DNA from: a virus
Virus genome (UHGV): UHGV-0236300
Direction: 5' to 3' (one strand)
Length of the DNA stretch: 64,000 nt
Within the stretch, counting starts at the first letter, position 1; each line of letters opens with the position of its first letter. The notes below the pieces were generated by a model. The model was not told where the DNA came from. It made no database searches and worked only from the letters and a program-made list of their open reading frames with translations. The translations under genes were made by a program, and so were the position numbers. Below, piece after piece: positions 35,434 to 61,526 of the stretch.

Positions 35434-35771
35434 GTTTGTGGAGAAATATCGTTAACTACGTGTGTGGCAATCCGACTCCTGAAGAGAAGGATGTTGTGAT
35501 TCACGATTTTACTAAAAGATCTCGTGAAAAAGATCTACTGCTAACAAAGGTGACTGATAAAGATCCTGCAGTAGGGGACTGGGCAGGTTTTGCGTTTACA
35601 TCGGACAAATACACCTTTAACAAAGGTGACTACCTTGTTGTGGATTTTAACGAAGATATTGAGGGTGCTGAACCTTACTATCAAACCCTTATTGTTGCAG
35701 GGTGTGTTGATCTCTCTGCAGGCATGCACAGTTTGATTCTTTTTGAGCTTGACTCTGAAGACCTTGAGTAG
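35430..35771 (+). CDS. hypothetical protein
   Basis: ATGA overlap with helicase gene. Confidence 0.55.
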   Translation: MSLWRNIVNYVCGNPTPEEKDVVIHDFTKRSREKDLLLTKVTDKDPAVGDWAGFAFTSDKYTFNKGDYLVVDFNEDIEGAEPYYQTLIVAGCVDLSAGMHSLILFELDSEDLE

Positions 35772-35788
35772 TAAGATGTGAGTATAAA

Positions 35789-35806
35789 GGGGAGGCACTC
35801 CTCCCC
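35789..35806 (+). other. strong intergenic hairpin (GGGGAGG-CACT-CCTCCCC)
   Basis: Perfect 7-bp GC stem with tetraloop; no downstream T-run, so probably not a plus-strand intrinsic terminator. Confidence 0.5.
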
Positions 35807-37950: not shown

Positions 37951-38433
37951 ATGTCAGATTTTATGTGGAAGGTAGGTTATGCCTCTCCTGAAATGTGTGA
38001 GGCTTGTTTTGTGAAAATAGGCCGCGAGGATATTGACAAAGTGATCCTTAAGTTTCGTGATGTGTCTGTAATCGGCAACCGAGTTCTTAAGCACTTAAAG
38101 AATCTGAAGCTCACCAAGAAGAAGTTCTTCGGACTTTTCGAAGAGAAAGTTGATGCTTGGACCCATTGCATTCAGGAAGCTAAATCTCACTACAGTGCTA
38201 TCGTTACTCCGGAACGGGTAGCCAAGATGGAAGGATTCATCAACAGCACGGAGTTTGAGTGCCTAAAGGCTGCCCTTGATAGCTATCCAAAGTGCCTCAA
38301 ACACCTTGACAAGTATGTAGAAAAGGATGGTGAAATGTATCTCACCCTGGACGCATACTATGAGATGCAAGAAATTTTAAATTTAGATTTGACATTGGTA
38401 TCCACCGAGTATACAATAGGTATCCGGGTTTAA
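37951..38433 (+). CDS. hypothetical protein
   Basis: RBS AGGAGAGGG; terminator follows. Confidence 0.55.
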   Translation: MSDFMWKVGYASPEMCEACFVKIGREDIDKVILKFRDVSVIGNRVLKHLKNLKLTKKKFFGLFEEKVDAWTHCIQEAKSHYSAIVTPERVAKMEGFINSTEFECLKAALDSYPKCLKHLDKYVEKDGEMYLTLDAYYEMQEILNLDLTLVSTEYTIGIRV

Positions 38434-38439
38434 CACTAT

Positions 38440-38468
38440 GCCCTGCCCGAAAGGGTGGGGCTTTTTGC
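38440..38468 (+). terminator. rho-independent terminator
   Basis: GCCCTGCCC-GAAA-GGGTGGGGC hairpin plus T-run; near-identical copy at 49441. Confidence 0.7.
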
Positions 38469-53440: not shown

Positions 53441-53565
53441 AAATGGATTTTTAAAATTTGTATATGGAAATACTTAAGGAGGTATTATTTTATATAGAAT
53501 TGTCACGGTAGGTAATTAGCATGCTAACTAAATTTATGAAATGCGAAAAGTTCTCATTTAGAATT

Positions 53566-53584
53566 TTGAATGATAATCATTCTC
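53566..53584 (+). promoter_or_regulatory. Fur-box-like operator (copy 1)
   Basis: TTGAATGATAATCATTCTC matches 16 of 19 positions of Fur consensus GATAATGATAATCATTATC. Confidence 0.45.
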
Positions 53585-53698
53585 GTTTGCAGAATAACGG
53601 GCACCCCCGGTGATTGTCTCCCGGCCCCTGTTGCCCCGGCTTGTTATTATAGTATCACACAGGACAAAGAAAGCAAGGATTTTTTGCATAAATTTTTA

Positions 53699-53720
53699 AA
53701 TGATAATGATAACCGTTCTC
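53699..53720 (+). promoter_or_regulatory. Fur-box-like operator (copy 2)
   Basis: GATAATGATAACCGTTCTC matches 16 of 19 Fur consensus positions. Confidence 0.4.
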
Positions 53721-53941
53721 ATTTTATGCAGCGCCCATCCCCGGTGGTTGTCTCCCCCGTCACCGGTGCCTGCCGTCCTTTCGATAGGTATATTGTGCCA
53801 CCTGGCGGGGCCGCTGTCAACACTTTTCAAAAAAATTCTAACCTGATGCGCTAACCGTTGCAACCTGGCGGGGCCAGCCTGGCAGGGCTATGCTATAGGG
53901 TAGGCAACAACTGAAGAGGAGGTACAAAAATAAAAGGTAAT

Positions 53942-54103
53942 ATGATCCCTGGAAATGTAGCGATTAATGACGCTGAGGCTATCGCCCTGGTTGAAAAGGC
54001 TATGGCGGGAGCGTTGGAACATAAAGAAGAGTACGAAAAAATGATGGTTAACCTGGCAGGGGCGGCGGCTGGAGAATTCTGCCCAAAAAATAATTCTAAC
54101 TAA
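53942..54103 (+). CDS. small hypothetical protein (53 aa)
   Basis: Not in ORF track; ATG after GAAGAGGAGG. Confidence 0.45.
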   Translation: MIPGNVAINDAEAIALVEKAMAGALEHKEEYEKMMVNLAGAAAGEFCPKNNSN

Positions 54104-54186
54104 TGGTTGACAGCTCGGATAGTTCTGTTATTCTTATCCTCGCAAGGTGAACAACACCACACTAATTAACAGAGAGGATAAAAATC

Positions 54187-54384
54187 ATGAACGCCTACGG
54201 AATTAAAGTACGTCGCAACACTCGCCAGGCCGTCACCGATCAAATGATTTGCCAGGTGGACGTAACCATCAACAACGGGCAAGGCCTTTATAAATTCCGT
54301 CGCGGTCAGAGCTACACCCGGCAACAGCTTAATCGTTGCGCCCTGACAAAAGGCCAGATCAACCACTGGTTTAATAAAAAATAA
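54187..54384 (+). CDS. hypothetical small basic protein
   Basis: RBS GAGAGGA. Confidence 0.5.
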   Translation: MNAYGIKVRRNTRQAVTDQMICQVDVTINNGQGLYKFRRGQSYTRQQLNRCALTKGQINHWFNKK

Positions 54385-54387
54385 GTA

Positions 54388-54416
54388 TTGACATACAGTC
54401 TGACACCAAATACACT
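54388..54416 (+). promoter_or_regulatory. sigma70-like promoter
   Basis: TTGACA-17-TACACT. Confidence 0.45.
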
Positions 54417-54448
54417 AAAAGCACAAAAGACACTAAGAGGATAAAATC

Positions 54449-54847
54449 ATGAAAACCACTACCTTTAATTTTGATAATGCGGACTTTTCTTTTTCTGATG
54501 TCAAGAACTGCCGCCGTGATCGTGGATTTTACAAGGCCTATAATCTGGTGGGCCTGGACGATGACAATAATTTGCACGAAGTAGCTGAGATCCGGTATTA
54601 TGCCGCCGCCAGCGGGAACACTCAATACTGCGTTTTTTGGATTCACGACAACAAGAACAATAAGTACGGTTATACTGGCGGGAAGGCGAGCGGTCACGGT
54701 TACGATAAAGCTAATGCAGCACTTGAGAGCGCATTAAATGCTATGGGGATCACTGCCAACGGCTGGATCTATGAAGAAGAGTTTTTGTCGGCACTTGCTA
54801 ACCACCTGGGCTATAAAAAGCACATTGTAACATGCGCCCACGAATAA
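54449..54847 (+). CDS. hypothetical protein
   Basis: RBS AAGAGGA. Confidence 0.55.
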   Translation: MKTTTFNFDNADFSFSDVKNCRRDRGFYKAYNLVGLDDDNNLHEVAEIRYYAAASGNTQYCVFWIHDNKNNKYGYTGGKASGHGYDKANAALESALNAMGITANGWIYEEEFLSALANHLGYKKHIVTCAHE

Positions 54848-54853
54848 AAATTG

Positions 54854-54881
54854 TTGACACGCTGCAAAATTCAAGTAAACT
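54854..54881 (+). promoter_or_regulatory. sigma70-like promoter
   Basis: TTGACA-16-TAAACT. Confidence 0.45.
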
Positions 54882-54929
54882 AATCACAAAAGGCGGGAAT
54901 GTTTCCCGCCAACACAAAGGAAAAAGATC

Positions 54930-55334
54930 ATGAATAAGAACGTACGCCGCATCATGAATGAACTGGCAAACGATGAAAAAATTATTGATATGCATTTGGT
55001 GAACATTTGCCGCCGTTGTGTAACATATAACAACCGCGCCGCAAAAGCGCGTGAGATGAACGCAAAAGGCACCTTAAAGCCCTTCCAGGTGGTGGTAAAG
55101 GCCATCAAAGATGTAACTAATACGGCAAACCAGGTACAGGGGAACACCAACGAGAGTACCGATATTGATCCGGCTTACATCATGAAACGGATCCGGACCT
55201 GCAAGAACAAAGAGCAAGTGTATAACGTCATAGACTGGTTGGATTCTATGGGCGACGTGGTGTACAATAGGTTTTCTGCAGCTATCGAGATCCAGCTTGA
55301 CAGGTTGGACGGGAAAGTACTGAAAACTTATTAA
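54930..55334 (+). CDS. hypothetical protein
   Basis: RBS AAGGAAA. Confidence 0.55.
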   Translation: MNKNVRRIMNELANDEKIIDMHLVNICRRCVTYNNRAAKAREMNAKGTLKPFQVVVKAIKDVTNTANQVQGNTNESTDIDPAYIMKRIRTCKNKEQVYNVIDWLDSMGDVVYNRFSAAIEIQLDRLDGKVLKTY

Positions 55335-55335
55335 G

Positions 55336-55381
55336 TTTATTTTTAGATGGCCTTGACTCCAGGGCCATCAATAAAGTAAAC
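55336..55381 (+). repeat. conserved intergenic cassette copy 1 (T-run plus GATGGCC...GGCCATC hairpin with embedded TTGACT)
   Basis: 46-bp sequence identical to 55957-56002. Confidence 0.7.
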
Positions 55382-55414
55382 TAGTCTCAACTAAGCGAAA
55401 AAGGGGGCTTTAAG

Positions 55415-55534
55415 ATGAGCACTACACGCCAATACACAAAGGTAACTATTATCGTTTGCGTTGTCGGTTACATCCTGGCGCAAATGTTAATGAGTAGCGC
55501 CAACAGTTTTGCAAAATTTTTCTTAAATTTTTAA
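55415..55534 (+). CDS. small hydrophobic peptide (39 aa)
   Basis: Not in ORF track; ATG after AAGGGGG. Confidence 0.35.
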   Translation: MSTTRQYTKVTIIVCVVGYILAQMLMSSANSFAKFFLNF

Positions 55535-55562
55535 TTGACAAGCTAACCCAAATCAGTATACT
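55535..55562 (+). promoter_or_regulatory. sigma70-like promoter followed by conserved ACGTAAACGGGAAAACTTCCC element
   Basis: TTGACA-16-TATACT; downstream 22-bp element 55567-55588 duplicated at 57426-57447. Confidence 0.6.
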
Positions 55563-55613
55563 TAAGCACGTAAACGGGAAAACTTCCCAGAACACACAAA
55601 AGGAGAAAACACC

Positions 55614-55946
55614 ATGACTACTATGACCGCCGCAGAAAAAGCTATTCAGGTTGCCGCACTGAAAAAACAGATCGCAGACCTTGAGAACAAGATCGATAAC
55701 TTTGAAATCGACGAGGACAAGTACGACGAAAACTATGATGAATGGTTAGACGAGGTCTACGGCGAAATCATGATCGGAAACATTTCTTTTCTTCCGTCGC
55801 GTATCCTCAAGGAGCTAGATCCTATCGCTTACCGCTGCGGATTTAGCGACTACATCGACAGCCTGGATATTGAGGACGATGAAGAGTACCAAGAATTGCA
55901 AACAGAGTTGGAAGAAGCAAAAGAAGAGCTTGCAGAACTGGAATAA
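55614..55946 (+). CDS. hypothetical acidic coiled-coil protein
   Basis: RBS AAGGAGAA. Confidence 0.55.
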   Translation: MTTMTAAEKAIQVAALKKQIADLENKIDNFEIDEDKYDENYDEWLDEVYGEIMIGNISFLPSRILKELDPIAYRCGFSDYIDSLDIEDDEEYQELQTELEEAKEELAELE

Positions 55947-55956
55947 AACGAGTAAA

Positions 55957-56002
55957 TTTATTTTTAGATGGCCTTGACTCCAGGGCCATCAATAAAGTAA
56001 AC
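55957..56002 (+). repeat. conserved intergenic cassette copy 2
   Basis: Identical to 55336-55381. Confidence 0.7.
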
Positions 56003-56041
56003 TTTACACTGTTAACACTGAACTAATGAGGAGTTAAAACC

Positions 56042-56287
56042 ATGGCAGCACTAATCACCAAATATTATGCGCCTACCAACACCAAAAGCGCCCGTATCAT
56101 GGTAAAAGGCTTCGGACGTAAAAAGGTCTACACCTGGGATTATGCCTTAGATATGGAAGACAACTACACCAACGCAATGACCGATTTTATTAATGATCTG
56201 AATAAACAGATCTTAACCGACTACAAAGTGACCGATATTGCCTACGTCGGGGAAGGCGGGATCTGTTTTGTGGGCATTGTGAAATAG
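56042..56287 (+). CDS. hypothetical protein
   Basis: RBS GAGGAG. Confidence 0.5.
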   Translation: MAALITKYYAPTNTKSARIMVKGFGRKKVYTWDYALDMEDNYTNAMTDFINDLNKQILTDYKVTDIAYVGEGGICFVGIVK

Positions 56288-56330
56288 TTATTTTTTCGGT
56301 GGTCCTGGCTGCAGGGCCATCTATAAAGAT
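56288..56330 (+). repeat. conserved intergenic cassette copy 3 (diverged)
   Basis: TTATTTTTTCGGTGGTCCTGGCTGCAGGGCCATCTATAAAG, variant of the 55336 and 55957 cassette. Confidence 0.55.
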
Positions 56331-56362
56331 AATTTATTAACACCATGAAAGGAGAAAGTAAC

Positions 56363-56716
56363 ATGATCAGCGGTGCAAGTTTTATCATTGGCGCTATTGC
56401 TACGGCTTTAATTGTAAACAAGATCCAGGATAAAAAGGAAAGAGGAAGCACCGCCCTTGCAGAATATCCATTTTGGGCATTCAACGATAACGAAGATTAT
56501 ATTATAAAGTATAAAAATAAAGAAGGTGACCAAGTAACACCGCGACCGATCCCGGCTTACAAGATGCAGGAAACACTATACCGCCTGGAGGCGGGGGGCG
56601 CAAAAATTGTGGACTTTTGGGGATACGATCACACAGATCAGGAAGTTATAAAGCGCCGTATCCGGGCTATTCAGGCCAATATTGAAGTTAGCAAGGGGGG
56701 AATATATGAAGATTAA
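56363..56716 (+). CDS. hypothetical protein
   Basis: ATG after AAAGGAGAA (track start 56345 contains the RBS). Confidence 0.5.
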   Translation: MISGASFIIGAIATALIVNKIQDKKERGSTALAEYPFWAFNDNEDYIIKYKNKEGDQVTPRPIPAYKMQETLYRLEAGGAKIVDFWGYDHTDQEVIKRRIRAIQANIEVSKGGIYED

Positions 56717-56903
56717 TTTTGAGAAGATTGTAAAGCGATCTCATGATTCCGAAGAGTTGCCGGAACGCCGCCAGCGTAACAATAAACTGAATAAGCCAAA
56801 AAGATTTGGAAAGATCTGGCGAAATCATTATGATCGTAAATTGCCTGGCCTACTTTTGGAACGTGAACGACAGGCAGAACGATACCGCCATAAAGACAAA
56901 TAA
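56706..56903 (+). CDS. hypothetical small basic protein
   Basis: ATG after AAGGGGGG; overlaps upstream stop; terminator follows. Confidence 0.5.
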   Translation: MKINFEKIVKRSHDSEELPERRQRNNKLNKPKRFGKIWRNHYDRKLPGLLLERERQAERYRHKDK

Positions 56904-56911
56904 CAACCAAC

Positions 56912-56940
56912 GCCCCGCCATTGTGCGGGGCTTTTTATTT
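56912..56940 (+). terminator. rho-independent terminator
   Basis: GCCCCGC-CATTGT-GCGGGGC hairpin plus TTTTTATTT. Confidence 0.75.
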
Positions 56941-57083
56941 CTATTCTACGAATAGCGCCCCTGGTTGGCCCTGTAAGCGCCAAAAAGGCCCCCACCTATG
57001 CAATCGCCCCTTTAACCTGAAAACATCGCCCAGGGCCGTTTTATGGCGTTAAAAATATTATTGGCAGTGATTTTATTTAAAGC

Positions 57084-57111
57084 TTGACATCTTAAACAGG
57101 TTAGCTATACT
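57084..57111 (+). promoter_or_regulatory. sigma70-like promoter
   Basis: TTGACA-16-TATACT. Confidence 0.6.
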
Positions 57112-57143
57112 AACCACATCAAAGAGAGAAAGGAGTAAACGCC

Positions 57144-57404
57144 ATGCGTAAATTAAAAAATTTTGATAAAGTTGATGTTATCCTGAATAATTTTTACTAC
57201 TGCAACAACAAGGCCATTTGGTGGCGTGATAGTTCCACCGATAAAGTCAAGGCGCGCTTTCTCCAGGGGCACTGGCAAGGCCGTCCAGTGATTAAAATCA
57301 TGGGGCAATTGGTAGCGTTTAAAAATTGCCGCCGTGTTGATGACGTTGAAGAGATTTTAAACATTTTGCGCCACAATAATTTAAAAAATAGTGTTGACAA
57401 GTAA
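57144..57404 (+). CDS. hypothetical protein
   Basis: RBS AAAGGAG. Confidence 0.55.
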   Translation: MRKLKNFDKVDVILNNFYYCNNKAIWWRDSSTDKVKARFLQGHWQGRPVIKIMGQLVAFKNCRRVDDVEEILNILRHNNLKNSVDK

Positions 57405-57421
57405 ATCTCGATAAGTATACT
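57394..57421 (+). promoter_or_regulatory. sigma70-like promoter followed by conserved ACGTAAACGGGAAAACTTCCC element
   Basis: TTGACA-16-TATACT overlapping end of upstream gene; element at 57426-57447. Confidence 0.6.
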
Positions 57422-57478
57422 TAAACACGTAAACGGGAAAACTTCCCGCCACTAACAAAGAAAATAGGAGAAAATATC

Positions 57479-58102
57479 ATGACCACCGTTAACATTACCA
57501 CAGGTTGCAATTTATCTTTCGACGTGCTGACCGACGAACAAAAAGAAAAAGCTATTGAAATGGTCCGCGAAAGAGAAGAACACAGCGGAGAGGATTTTTT
57601 CGCAGAAAGTGTAATTGAATATTATAAAGAACAAGTTTTTCCAGAGTACGGCCTTGAAGATACCGAAGTACATTGGTCCGGCTTTTGGTGCCAGGGTGAC
57701 GGCGCGTCAATCAGTGCTGAAAACGTGGATTTAGAAAAATTCTTGCGTAAAGTAAAGGCCCTGACCAAGTTCCGATCAATTCGTCACTTGTTCGGCACAA
57801 TGCACGATGGCGAGTTATCAGCCAGTATTGAACGCGACAAGTACAGCCATTACAGCCATGAAAACACTGTAAGCGGATACATTGATACCACCTGGCTAGA
57901 TCTGACCGCCAAACAAGAAAACAAAGTGGAAGACCTGGAAGAGCTGATCACCGAGACGGTACGGGAGCTATCCCGCAAGGTTTATGTAGACCTGGAGGAG
58001 TCCTATCTTGAACAGTTTACTACCGAAAACCTGATCGGCCTTATTGAAGCCAATGATTGGCGGTTTGATGTGGATGAATATGGTGAGATGAGTTTTTCAT
58101 AA
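57479..58102 (+). CDS. hypothetical protein
   Basis: RBS AATAGGAGAAAA. Confidence 0.55.
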   Translation: MTTVNITTGCNLSFDVLTDEQKEKAIEMVREREEHSGEDFFAESVIEYYKEQVFPEYGLEDTEVHWSGFWCQGDGASISAENVDLEKFLRKVKALTKFRSIRHLFGTMHDGELSASIERDKYSHYSHENTVSGYIDTTWLDLTAKQENKVEDLEELITETVRELSRKVYVDLEESYLEQFTTENLIGLIEANDWRFDVDEYGEMSFS

Positions 58103-58110
58103 ATAAAGTG

Positions 58111-58138
58111 TTGCAATAATCTAAAAACCTGCTATATT
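58111..58138 (+). promoter_or_regulatory. sigma70-like promoter
   Basis: TTGCAA-16-TATATT. Confidence 0.4.
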
Positions 58139-58157
58139 TAAAACTCAAGGGGGTGAG

Positions 58158-58457
58158 ATGACTTGCCTCCCACAAAACAAAGAGGAAAACATCATGAAAC
58201 GTCTTGACCAGCTCAAACTAGTTCAGTACATGGCTTACAGAATTCTTGAAGTCCAAAAAGGTAGCAAAAAAGAAGTTTGCGAGAAAGCGTACAAGATCTT
58301 TACTCGCAAAAAAGACGATTGGATGTTACGCCAGACCAAAAAAGCCGATATCTTGGGGTACCTGGAAGAAGAGATCCGGCTTGAAGAACAAGAAGAGATC
58401 CGCCGTAGTGAGGCAGATTATCAGGCAGCTTGGGAAAACTGGATGAGCAACAAATAA
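58158..58457 (+). CDS. hypothetical protein
   Basis: ATG after AGGGGGTGAG; alternative in-frame start at 58194 after AGAGGAAAA. Confidence 0.5.
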   Translation: MTCLPQNKEENIMKRLDQLKLVQYMAYRILEVQKGSKKEVCEKAYKIFTRKKDDWMLRQTKKADILGYLEEEIRLEEQEEIRRSEADYQAAWENWMSNK

Positions 58458-58522
58458 TACAACAGGTTGCATGGTCAGGGGCGATAAAGCCCCTTGATCA
58501 CATAAAAATTATGCTATCCCTT

Positions 58523-58551
58523 GTTGACAGGGATCGGCAGTTTTGCTATAT
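58523..58551 (+). promoter_or_regulatory. sigma70-like promoter
   Basis: TTGACA-17-TATATT. Confidence 0.55.
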
Positions 58552-58601
58552 TCTTTTTTGAAGGGAAGTTGTAAGAAAATTAACTAAGAGGTAAAAACAC
58601 C

Positions 58602-59021
58602 ATGAACATTAAATCTGATAATCCGGCATATAGCTTTGATAACGCTTTTTGTCACGGTCCGGCGGCGAAAGGATTCGAAATCGATGGTAAACTAATTATT
58701 GTCAATGTTGACGGGGAAGAGGTTGCAGTATATCCGGTGGCAGACGTTAAAAGCCGTCTACAATGCCGCATAGATGTTACCGCCTATCAGCTTGATCCGG
58801 TCCGGGTAGTTGCCCTGGTCCTGGAAGAAGAAATTAAAGCAATGCACCACAGCAACAAGTTTATTGGTGACGCTCAAGATAATATGCAGGTATGCCGCTA
58901 TAAAGTTAATGAAGTGCTTAAAGAGTACGGCTATAAGGATTTAATGATCAAGCGCGATGAAAAATTCCGCTACCGTAACGACCTGGCAAATCGGATTTTT
59001 GAAATATACGAATCATTATAA
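58602..59021 (+). CDS. hypothetical protein
   Basis: RBS AAGAGGTAAAAA; terminator follows. Confidence 0.55.
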   Translation: MNIKSDNPAYSFDNAFCHGPAAKGFEIDGKLIIVNVDGEEVAVYPVADVKSRLQCRIDVTAYQLDPVRVVALVLEEEIKAMHHSNKFIGDAQDNMQVCRYKVNEVLKEYGYKDLMIKRDEKFRYRNDLANRIFEIYESL

Positions 59022-59040
59022 TTTCTTAACTGAATTATCA

Positions 59041-59067
59041 AGGGGCTTAAAGGCCCCTTTCTTTTTG
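59041..59067 (+). terminator. rho-independent terminator
   Basis: AGGGGC-TTAAAG-GCCCCT hairpin plus TTCTTTTTG. Confidence 0.75.
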
Positions 59068-59929
59068 TCTGCTCTTCTCCTACCATAAACGGCCCTACCT
59101 GGCAAGTGGAATAATTGACTAGCCATCAATCCCACATACTGTACAAATATACATGGAAAATAACTATTGCATAATCTTTCATTGTGTGGTAGCAGGGCCA
59201 TTTTTACCCGTTTTCTCTCCCAAAAGTGCACGTAATGCCGCTATTGCACAAATTTTAACCTGATGCACATCTCCAATATCTTGTCAACAACTAAAAATCT
59301 TTATAAGTCATACACTTACACAGCATCGAAAGCGTGTTCTACGCGAAAAATCGAGTATAACTATAGCCGCCAGATCTCAGAATTCACGTACGCACGCCAT
59401 TCTATAGTCTGCAAAGTATTTATTCCAACCACAGAATAACGGAATAGTCAATACCTGCATAAAATAATTATTCGTGTAAACTGCATAACATAAATCAGCT
59501 CAGGTGTCAACATTTTTCGTAAACAGTTCGAAATTGTCACGATAAGTTATTATACACAGAGAAATCTTTAGTCGTCTAATGTTTACTGTACATTACTATA
59601 CTGACTGGAATCATTAGATGACTAAGAGAAAGATAAGAAATAATTAATAATGTAATTGTTTTACCTGTAACAATAAGGCAACTATGCAAACGAATGGCAT
59701 GGCGCGACGGAGTCGCGACATAATATAAAAGCAGTAACAATCACCCCCGTGATAGTTTTTCTGCAATCTATTATTCAGATCATAGTTGCCTTGTATTTAG
59801 TTAATCATGACATAACAAGCAAGGCAACTATAGATCTTCTAATAGTTGCCCTGCTTTTATATTATGTCATAGATTGTTATCTTGTTAATTGTTTTCATGC
59901 AAACGAATGTCATGGCTTATCATCTCTGT

Positions 59930-60100
59930 GTAAACAATTTGGGCGTAAACTATTCAGATGAAAACTATTCAGGCGTAAACAGTCTATGCGTAAACAGTGA
60001 GATATGGAATAGTAACAGCCGTTATTGTGTCATATTGTGTCATTGTGTCAAAGGTAAAAGTGTCAAAAGTGACAATTTTGTCACATTGTGTCAGACAAGT
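59930..60100. repeat. iteron array: GCGTAAAC direct repeats, then TGTCA/TGACA repeat cluster
   Basis: GCGTAAAC at 59943, 59973, 59988 (and 60310); AAACTATTCAG x2; ATTGTGTCA x3 and TGTCAAAAGTGACAATTTTGTCACATTGTGTCA at 60024-60096. Confidence 0.65.
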
Positions 60101-60622
60101 TTTTCTCCTCTTTGTCAAGTGCCGCATGAAAAATTTACAAACTGGTATGGTAGCATTTTTGCGGCCCTGTTTACATTCAGGAATGTATGTATAATCCTTG
60201 CTGTGTGGGCGTTTAGACGTCTGGACGGTCAGAAGTCAGCAGGTCAATATCTAATCTATTGGTTGCTAACTATATCCCACACAAATAGTAAGAAATATAA
60301 TTGTTATGTGCGTAAACAGTAACTCATGTTATCAATCCCTGTATGTATCGCCAGTGGTGCGCATAATGGGTATTATGTTAAATTGCCCGTAATGATAACC
60401 ATTCTCACAATGATAGGTATTCTCATTCATCCCCACAAGATAGATTGCAAATGTTGTGCCACTGTGTGAACGGCCTCACCTATTAATTTGCCTCACTGCC
60501 TCGATATTTGAGAATTATTATAAAAAATGAGAAGTATTCCCATTCCGTCCGCCTGGCAGCACTCCTGTAGGACAAGCACAACATCGGGGTATAACTGGAC
60601 CTGTTCAGATATTTCTGGCTGA

Positions 60623-61163
60623 CTCTTCAGGCCTGTGTGGGAAAAGCCAACCTCTCCGGCGGCGGGGAGGGGGGTCAATTAAAAAATTTACGTGGTGTAT
60701 GAAGCGCTCTTCAGGCAAGGTGTGTATTATGGGATGAAACCCTCTTCAGGTGATGATATTTGTGGGGGGATATTTGCTGGAAAGCCAGATATGACGGGGC
60801 TCCCGGCGGGGATGGGGTAGTACAGACAGGGAAAATGTGGGGATGTGGTGGGAGTAAATTGATCAAGTAGGTAGGATATGGAATATGTTACAAGTATGTT
60901 AAATATAGAGGTAGGATATTTGTGAGATTTGTGTGTAAAATCAAAGACTTAGGTGGTGTTGTGGTATTTTCTATAAATAATTCAAGTTTAATAGGTGATA
61001 TTTGTCTCCATCCACTTTGTGTGGTAAACAGCTCCTAATTGAATTGGTTTACAAGTGTATATAAAGTATACAAATTAAAGATATAAGAAACCCCCCTCCC
61101 CCTTCGGCTACCATTCACCTTTTCCTCTGACTGGTACTTAAACACTTATTCAGACTCTTCAGG
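60623..61163. repeat. dispersed CTCTTCAGG motif copies in G/T-rich non-coding DNA
   Basis: CTCTTCAGG at 60623, 60708, 60742 and 61155 (fifth at 61815), each followed by GT-rich tract. Confidence 0.55.
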
Positions 61164-61526
61164 TTATCACCCCTATACTATATGGCAGTGACTGGTGTCC
61201 TCCGGCCCCTCTTTCGCCACCCGTCCGCTTCGCCATGCTAATGCCATAGCCAAAGGTTCGGTTGTTCACCCTGTTCACTCAGGTGTATCTCCATACCCCT
61301 TCAAACCGAAGAGAACAGAAAACCCGAATTACTCGGTAAAAGAAAAGAGAAGAACTTAATTTTATCAAGATAGGCAAGAATGTCAAGGGATGACTGCTCA
61401 CTAAACAAGCAAACAGTCATGTGTGGTAGGTAAGTAACTGGGTTGGTAGGAAATTTAGTTGGAAGATGTTATAGGTGCCTCCAGAACCTTAGCTGGGCAG
61501 CTAAACCTGCAAAGCAGACTTGTGTG

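Follow-up and report, generated by a model that had tools for sequence, protein, structure and literature searches.

A hairpin shared by three early promoter/leader cassettes of an rV5-like phage is a candidate 5'-proximal mRNA stem-loop

Results

Three early leaders share one palindrome

The 64,000-nucleotide stretch of the UHGV virus genome UHGV-0236300 analyzed here (the window) represents the early region of an rV5-like Escherichia coli myovirus (Vequintavirus). Its segment from 54500 to 58500 matches 123 phage records with 90 to 96% identity, in reversed orientation relative to rV5 (NC_011041). This neighborhood consists of a series of small plus-strand early genes, most of which are preceded by a near-consensus sigma70 promoter. 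An initial annotation of the sequence described two of these promoters as being followed by an identical 22-bp element, which was read as an operator or a 5' RNA stem-loop. The 22-mer, CACGTAAACGGGAAAACTTCCC, was found exactly at 55567 to 55588 (copy A) and at 57426 to 57447 (copy B) on the plus strand; no further copy was present in the window even at three mismatches, and no match was obtained in 100 shuffles. Each copy starts 4 nucleotides (nt) past the -10 box of a plus-strand promoter with the sequence TTGACA-16-TATACT. Promoter A (55535 to 55562) corresponds to P192 in the rV5 annotation; promoter B (57394 to 57421) overlaps the 3' end of an 86-aa open reading frame (ORF) upstream and is a predicted promoter in the annotation of phage Gotham. 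The near-identity of the wider block, given before as 31 of 32 positions, amounts to 33 of 34 positions (55555 to 55588 versus 57414 to 57447) and includes the -10 box.

Copy A holds hairpin A, GGGAA-AAC-TTCCC (55576 to 55588), with a 5-bp stem and a predicted stability of -5.5 kcal/mol. Copy B holds hairpin B, CGGGAA-AAC-TTCCCG (57434 to 57448), with a 6-bp stem and -7.5 kcal/mol. The inverted repeat was thus rightly recognized at both sites, but under the assumption that transcription begins about 7 nt past the -10 box, it is placed at approximately +8 to +20 and not at +5 to +25. Analysis of the window for the palindrome GGGAANNNTTCCC revealed three occurrences, versus 0.08 expected, so that the count of two promoters was too low. 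The third leader is headed by promoter C (TTGACA-16-TAAACT, 54854 to 54881, plus strand), which lies immediately 3' of the stop codon of a 132-aa ORF and is kept in all relatives described below. Hairpin C (54892 to 54910, plus strand) has the sequence GGCGGGAA-TGT-TTCCCGCC, an 8-bp stem, and a stability of -14.6 kcal/mol; it begins 11 nt past the -10 box, at about +4/+5 by prediction. At sites A, B, and C, the GGGAA motif starts 14 nt past the -10 box, with the same half-sites and the same 3-bp spacing, within the polymerase footprint. A Shine-Dalgarno sequence (SD) and an ATG codon follow 25 to 32 nt past each hairpin. A/T-rich sequence lies upstream of all three promoters, as in the promoter-early stem-loop (PeSL) cassettes discussed below.

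The three hairpins differ in stability. Hairpin C has a z score of -4.9, and none of 200 shuffled sequences was as stable; the z scores were -1.5 for hairpin A and -2.4 for hairpin B. All hairpins are located 10 to 14 nt downstream of the -10 box, inside the transcribed leader and not upstream of or within the promoter. For a start 7 nt past the -10 box, about 3 to 5 unpaired 5' nucleotides are predicted at site C, and the same number is predicted for site B in most relatives. No published transcription start mapping for Vequintavirus was found in a literature search.

No T-run follows hairpin A, B, or C on the plus strand, where the subsequent sequences are AACACAAAGG, AGAACACACA, and CCACTAACAA. 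On this sequence signature, a function as plus-strand intrinsic terminator or attenuator was rejected, since the U-tract is absent and none of the hairpins was called by the terminator scan. On the minus strand, where no genes lie nearby, the reverse complement of hairpin C followed by TTTTGTGATT is rated as an intrinsic terminator; it could serve as a stop for antisense transcription. A search of positions 53500 to 61500 on both strands with the Rfam 15 covariance models gave no match at an E value of 1 or below.

The hairpin, not the 22-mer, is conserved in relatives

The leaders were aligned one by one with those of 13 Vequintavirus genomes or contigs (11 to 13 relatives in the alignments). 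The GenBank phage set was used, as an IMG/VR search with the 207-aa protein encoded downstream of hairpin B yielded only two close relatives. In the complete rV5 genome (137,947 bp), the exact palindrome is present in only three copies, located at the three homologous leaders. The -35 and -10 boxes and the SD are fixed across the aligned relatives, as are the hairpin arms in nearly all of them. The promoter spacer, the loop, and most of all the bases between the -10 box and the hairpin are variable. At site A, this pre-hairpin segment occurs as cacGtaaac, cacAtaaac, cacAtaGac, or cacAtCaac, and CACGTAAAC is replaced in relatives by CACATAAAC, CACATAGAC, or CACATCAAC. The CACGTAAAC half of the 22-mer is therefore the most variable segment of the leader, and the 22 bp as a whole do not constitute the element. 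The conserved unit is the hairpin cassette, which is present in three copies.

At site B, 11 relatives carry cacacaGGC, cacataGGC, cacataGGT, or cacgcaGGC in front of the hairpin. The GGC-type segment pairs with the downstream GCC and thereby generates an 8-bp stem, GGCGGGAA-AAC-TTCCCGCC, with a stability of -14.6 kcal/mol (z = -5.1 for site B of rV5). The cacgtaaac segment of site A was found at site B only in the window and in phage ECP26, resulting in the 6-bp stem. Full 22-bp identity between two sites is confined to the window, as ECP26 has the same version of site B without site A. The identity is lineage-specific, because site B differs in the other relatives. Comparison of these versions suggests that it is best explained by a short, recent tract of conversion or recombination with site A as donor and site B as recipient; the two cassettes are 1.86 kb apart. 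This conversion looks to have shortened the usual 8-bp stem of site B to 6 bp.

Three loops (AAC, GTT, and CAA) were found at site B and two at site C, namely TGT and, in relative L003 and in phita32, ACA. In some relatives the loop is replaced by its exact reverse complement while the arms are unchanged: AAC by GTT at site B of APECc02 (L015), and TGT by ACA at site C of L003 and phita32 (L016). The center of the palindrome has thus been inverted, an outcome that hairpin-mediated template switching, or recombination inside the arms, would be expected to produce. A metagenome scan with the site-B SD-ATG 18-mer as anchor, which was too generic for the purpose, gave three rV5-like leaders without compensatory changes.

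The motif is bound to promoter-proximal leader positions in viral contigs

To determine the distribution of this arrangement, IMG/VR viral contigs were scanned with the pattern TTGACA-N16-18-TANNNT-N9-17-GGGAANNNTTCCC. The scan revealed 60 loci, 49 of them distinct. The same pattern with arms GAGAG/CTCTC gave 11 loci (10 distinct), with arms GGGTT/AACCC 11 loci (9 distinct), and with a scrambled -35 box 7 loci (4 distinct). Placement of the hairpin 9 to 17 nt upstream of the -35 box gave 12 loci, among which distinct examples were not counted. The difference between 60 loci and the 7 to 12 loci of the four controls indicates that the motif depends on a consensus promoter as well as on its place in the leader, and that these arms are favored. 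Many of the 49 distinct leaders have an AT-rich upstream tract, and 30 of the 49 have an SD and a start codon within 60 nt of the hairpin. The stem mostly starts 9 to 11 nt past the -10 box, which would leave about 3 to 5 unpaired 5' nucleotides.

Pairing extends beyond the core. The pair just outside the core is a Watson-Crick pair in 29 of 48 distinct examples (expected fraction 0.26, P = 5e-7), and both of the two pairs that follow are of this type in 18 of 48 (P = 8e-10). The extending sequences vary, and slid registers gave background values. At the level of the sequences, these counts show selection for pairing in the leader palindrome.

Contigs with several such leaders belong to Phapecoctavirus, Justusliebigvirus (phi92-like), and Klebsiella rV5-like phages, and the jumbo phage 121Q carries several as well. 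Within one genome, hairpins with different arms were found at the same leader position, such as GGGGAGAA/TTCTCCCC, GGGCGGCA/TGCCGCTC, and GGGGGGC/GCCCCAC. Comparison with shuffled sequences revealed an excess of stable leader hairpins in rV5 (6 of 20 versus 0.55), at 121Q loci (6 of 8 versus 0.52), and at phi92/phAPEC8-like loci (10 of 19 versus 4.0). A scan of bacterial genomes for a promoter followed by GGGAA-N3-TTCCC gave at least 120 loci in scattered taxa, a number that is not interpretable without a control scan.

Gene neighborhood and module shuffling

Hairpin C is followed by a 134-aa early gene (54930 to 55334, phrog_13245), hairpin A by a 110-aa early gene (55614 to 55946, phrog_9294), and hairpin B by a 207-aa early gene (57479 to 58102, phrog_5162), all on the plus strand and of unknown function. 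Scans of the adjacent genes against Pfam and PHROG assigned them to families of unknown function only. Paralogy of the 110-aa, 207-aa, and 134-aa genes as the origin of the shared leader was ruled out, as their PHROG families differ. The terminator scan located intrinsic terminators inside the early units at 56912 to 56931 and 59040 to 59059.

The 207-aa protein, which has no Pfam match, has homologs in phage Av-05 and, with 57 to 60% identity, in jumbo phages of the 121Q/PBECO4 type. More remote homologs are present in RaK2-like, Erwinia, Xanthomonas, Caulobacter, Acinetobacter, and Bacillus phages, and several of these map to terminal-repeat regions. Among the homolog records, one is labeled "YeeU-like antitoxin" and another "LTXXQ motif-containing."

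Promoter A and hairpin A were found to be part of a 621-bp module, together with a 39-aa ORF and the 110-aa gene. Its left and right edges are formed by two identical copies of a 47-bp promoter block (55336 to 55382 and 55957 to 56003, plus strand), which carries a TTGACT-18-TAAACT promoter whose -35 box is spanned by an inverted repeat (ATGGCC/GGCCAT). The closely related phage ECP26 possesses a single 47-bp block, and the 621-bp module is precisely gone; rV5 possesses three copies of the block. Between the gene of the 207-aa protein and the homolog of gp159, the window also lacks a region of about 4.9 kb with approximately 20 small ORFs (gp160 to gp179), located at 107,461 to 112,360 in rV5. 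At the corresponding junction (58179 to 58199), the flanking alignments overlap by about 21 bp in a leader/start region. This overlap suggests that the 4.9-kb difference may have arisen by recombination between short similar leaders. Cassettes A and B themselves were not seen as deletion end-points; the insertions and deletions typical of PeSL were found at the neighboring blocks.

Two further units of the window combine a promoter with a hairpin. At 35749 to 35806, TTGACT-17-TAAGAT is followed by GGGGAGG-CACT-CCTCCCC (35789 to 35806), an A/C-rich leader, an SD, and an ATG, the same design with a different sequence. At 38389 to 38417, a TTGACA-17-TACAAT promoter is followed about 22 nt on by a strong terminator-like hairpin with a T-run (GCCCTGCCCGAAAGGGTGGGGCTTTTT, 38440 to 38466, -18.8 kcal/mol). 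By its layout, this unit could be the source of a very short transcript or an attenuator.

The initial annotation had also tied the promoter element to repeats at 59943 to 60317 by a common core, ACGTAAAC. This tie was rejected, as 55568 and 57427 are the only positions of ACGTAAAC, which is absent from the repeats. The four repeats (59943, 59973, 59988, and 60310) read GCGTAAAC and have in common with the promoter sites the 7-mer CGTAAAC alone, which is not kept at the promoter sites of relatives. The region itself lies between convergent early units and is noncoding; it corresponds to the box named "non-coding" in the rV5 paper. Besides the four GCGTAAAC copies, it contains four copies of TTGTGTCA (60025, 60035, 60043, and 60086) and inverted GTGTCA/TGACA copies; from this arrangement, it looks like an origin-like or protein-binding array. 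For annotation, comparative support is needed before repeated promoter-leader blocks are called operators or are tied to origin-like repeats.

Discussion

The most plausible reading of the shared 22-mers is that they are the leader parts of paralogous early promoter/leader cassettes, in which the conserved hairpin forms a stem-loop near the 5' end of the mRNA and thereby protects or insulates the leader. We give this reading a probability of about one half, and we infer that protection or insulation is the most likely role of the stem-loop. Each cassette begins with an AT-rich tract and a near-consensus sigma70 promoter; the short stretch around the predicted start is followed by the hairpin, the leader, an SD, and an ATG. 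The hairpin, short and G-rich/C-rich, with the core GGGAA-N3-TTCCC and usually extended to 6 to 9 bp, is followed by 10 to 25 nt of unstructured A/C-rich leader. It would fold in the nascent mRNA near the 5' end. RppH and RNase E need single-stranded 5' ends, and 5' secondary structure stabilizes E. coli mRNA (PMC3997798). Because both enzymes have this requirement, the folded hairpin would lower their access and hinder 5'-end-dependent decay. It may also insulate the ribosome-binding region, in transcripts from its own promoter as well as in read-through transcripts. The repeated cassettes would double as homology patches for PeSL-like shuffling of modules. Of the two possibilities named in the initial annotation, the 5' RNA stem-loop is the better half: the conserved unit is a hairpin, it is found in transcribed leaders only, its loop is not constant, and the sequences that lengthen its stem differ from case to case.

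Several results weigh against the stabilizing stem-loop. The window's own copies A and B are the weakest hairpins, and with about 6 to 8 unpaired 5' nucleotides predicted for them, they would make poor 5'-terminal protectors of the classical type; the position of the hairpin relative to the 5' end of the transcript is itself a prediction. A stabilizer role agrees well with site C and with the site-B version of most relatives and poorly with copies A and B of the window. The relatives have diverged by only 4 to 10%, which makes the fixed arms by themselves weak evidence. No compensatory change was found in the core arms, and the three core changes observed (site A of L003, site B of L002, and L281) all break pairs. 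G.U mismatches (19) and A.C mismatches (18) show no bias and give nothing in favor of RNA over DNA. The arms are enriched about 5-fold over composition-matched palindromes, which a purely structural role does not predict. The retention of the weak form of site A in all relatives suggests that the GGGAA/TTCCC sequence may matter beyond stability. The weak stems of the window and the preference for one arm sequence keep alive a sequence-specific reading, as a DNA operator or a protein-bound RNA. Because of the excess of these arms and their retention at the weak, 5'-distant site A, GGGAA-N3-TTCCC may be a sequence-specific cis-element in the first ~25 nt of early transcripts, common to several unrelated groups of virulent enterobacterial phages (rV5-like, phi92/phAPEC8-like, and 121Q-like jumbo phages) and recognized by one shared factor, for which a host protein or RNase would be the simplest choice. 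We regard this proposal as rather doubtful. If true, the element would label the early mRNAs that carry it so that they are protected, translated preferentially, or shut off at a set time.

Recognition as double-stranded DNA is an unlikely alternative, though one with evidence behind it. The 5-3-5 palindrome at about +8 to +20 would be an operator bound by a dimeric repressor of phage or host origin, which tunes or shuts a few early promoters. All three sites have the same arm sequence and 3-bp spacing, and so do nearly all relatives, even at site A with its weak stem; the site falls within the footprint of RNA polymerase; the flips of the loop alone (AAC to GTT, TGT to ACA) fit a need for symmetric half-sites only; and the arms are in about 5-fold excess over palindromes of the same composition after consensus promoters. 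However, the distance from the -10 box ranges from 9 to 17 nt without helical phasing and, at site A, differs by 3 nt between close relatives. The variable paired flanks lengthen the stems, which a protein site of fixed size does not need, and hairpins with unrelated arms occupy the same position in other leaders of one genome. The palindrome is not tied to other promoter positions, as the 12 loci upstream of the -35 box represent background. The spread over rV5-like phages and 121Q requires a common binding protein, and none was identified in the Pfam and PHROG scans of adjacent genes, the only search that bore on it. A nascent-RNA loading site for an elongation or translation factor, comparable to nut/boxB or to a translational operator, appears quite improbable. 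Such a signal would account for a leader-specific position and conserved arms; the similar C(C/T)AACAAAG after the hairpin at site B and in several 121Q leaders and the presence of intrinsic terminators within the early units would also be in line with it. Yet the loop, which is the usual recognition surface of boxB-type signals, is unconserved and even flips, no boxA-like CGCTCTTA lies nearby, the segment after the hairpin is not general across the examples, and no Rfam family matches. The hairpin is located 15 to 30 nt 5' of the SD and does not cover it.

The identity of copies A and B calls for the question whether the palindrome has a function of its own. Conversion best explains the 22-bp identity, the cassettes are demonstrably recombination substrates, and the close relatives are too alike for conservation to prove selection. 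The palindrome could thus be a repeat from common ancestry or recombination that hitch-hikes with strong promoters. This explanation is very unlikely given the 49 distinct and otherwise dissimilar viral leaders, compared with 4 to 10 in the de-duplicated controls, and given stem extensions of variable sequence far above chance. The hairpin is kept while neighboring bases diverge, and stable leader hairpins exceed shuffles by 2.5- to 11-fold in three phage groups. A role like that proposed for PeSL, in which the stem-loop terminates or attenuates transcription from the upstream cassette and each gene is expressed mainly from its own promoter, is highly improbable here. The PeSL stem-loops of RB49 and phi1 cut read-through like a strong terminator (PMC2839356), and the cassettes of the window lie directly behind upstream stop codons, so that read-through transcription must cross the hairpins. 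However, the plus strand has no U-tract, the terminator scan was negative there, and hairpins A and B are weak. Moreover, each hairpin lies downstream of its own transcription start, and a terminator at this position would stop the transcript of the cassette itself.

The cassettes resemble the PeSL cassettes of the T4-like phages RB49/phi1, PST/T4, and nt-1/KVP40, which combine strong early promoters with a stem-loop and mediate the shuffling of modules (PMC2839356, Arbiol et al. 2010; PMC4122927, Comeau et al. 2014). In both cases, repeated intergenic cassettes lie among small genes of unknown function and consist of an AT-rich tract, a near-consensus sigma70 early promoter, a G-run/C-run stem-loop, an SD, and an ATG. 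Near-identical copies are found 0.6 to 2 kb apart, and gene modules come and go between copies, as exemplified by the 621-bp module missing in ECP26. The 47-bp block (55336 and 55957), with its inverted repeat across the -35 box, resembles the PeSL of RB49. In contrast to the PeSL, the host genome is that of an rV5-like phage (Vequintavirinae) and not of a T4-like phage, and the stem-loop is located downstream of the -10 box and not upstream of or within the promoter. The absence of a terminator U-tract does not fit the terminator role proposed for the PeSL, and the arms have a specific GGGAA/TTCCC core in place of G(n)/C(n).

The second known theme is that of 5'-terminal stabilizer stem-loops. 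The leader hairpin GGGAGACC...GGUUUCCC of T7 gene 10 is a 5' stem-loop of this type. Further examples are the 5' hairpins of ompA and papA of E. coli, as they are cited in PMC3997798. The present cassettes share with these stabilizers a short G/C-closed hairpin in the first ~25 nt, counted from a predicted start, of an mRNA that is presumably highly expressed, followed by an unstructured leader and a strong SD; the expected effect would likewise be to keep RppH and RNase E off the 5' end. In contrast, hairpins A and B of the window are weak and probably begin 6 to 8 nt from the 5' end. To our knowledge, conservation of one arm sequence over many phages is not a feature of known 5' stabilizers.

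Promoter-proximal operators of the lac O1 type, bound at +1 to +20 by a dimeric repressor, are comparable in having a palindromic 5-3-5 site in the polymerase footprint with half-sites that are identical at several promoters. They differ from the cassettes, where the spacing to the promoter varies and variable paired flanks extend the palindrome. The sites of two host regulators, which we take to be GGAA-N5-TTCC for the IclR/AllR type and ACGCAAACG for the PurR/LacI type, were set aside, as the spacing differs or the matching part is unconserved. The lambdoid nut sites likewise place a small 5-bp hairpin in an early leader transcript. Unlike the GNRA-like pentaloop of boxB, the loop described here comprises 3 nt and is variable (AAC, GTT, CAA, TGT, ACA, TGG, and others). 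It is not accompanied by boxA and lies directly at the predicted 5' end and not tens to hundreds of nucleotides downstream.

The paper on the rV5 genome lists promoters and terminators and does not list leader hairpins (PMC3606486). The leader-hairpin cassette is a variant of the known PeSL and 5'-stabilizer themes, in a phage group in which it has not been described before. The one aspect from which something new could come is the unexplained preference for GGGAA/TTCCC arms. The PeSL are small cassettes that both express and shuffle small accessory genes, and the present findings would carry this idea past the T4-like phages to the rV5/phi92/phAPEC8 supergroup and to the 121Q jumbo phages. 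Phages of these groups are in wide use for therapy and biocontrol. The leader design, which is compact and portable and consists of a strong promoter, a 13- to 21-nt hairpin, and an open leader rich in A and C, may account for a high level of early expression.

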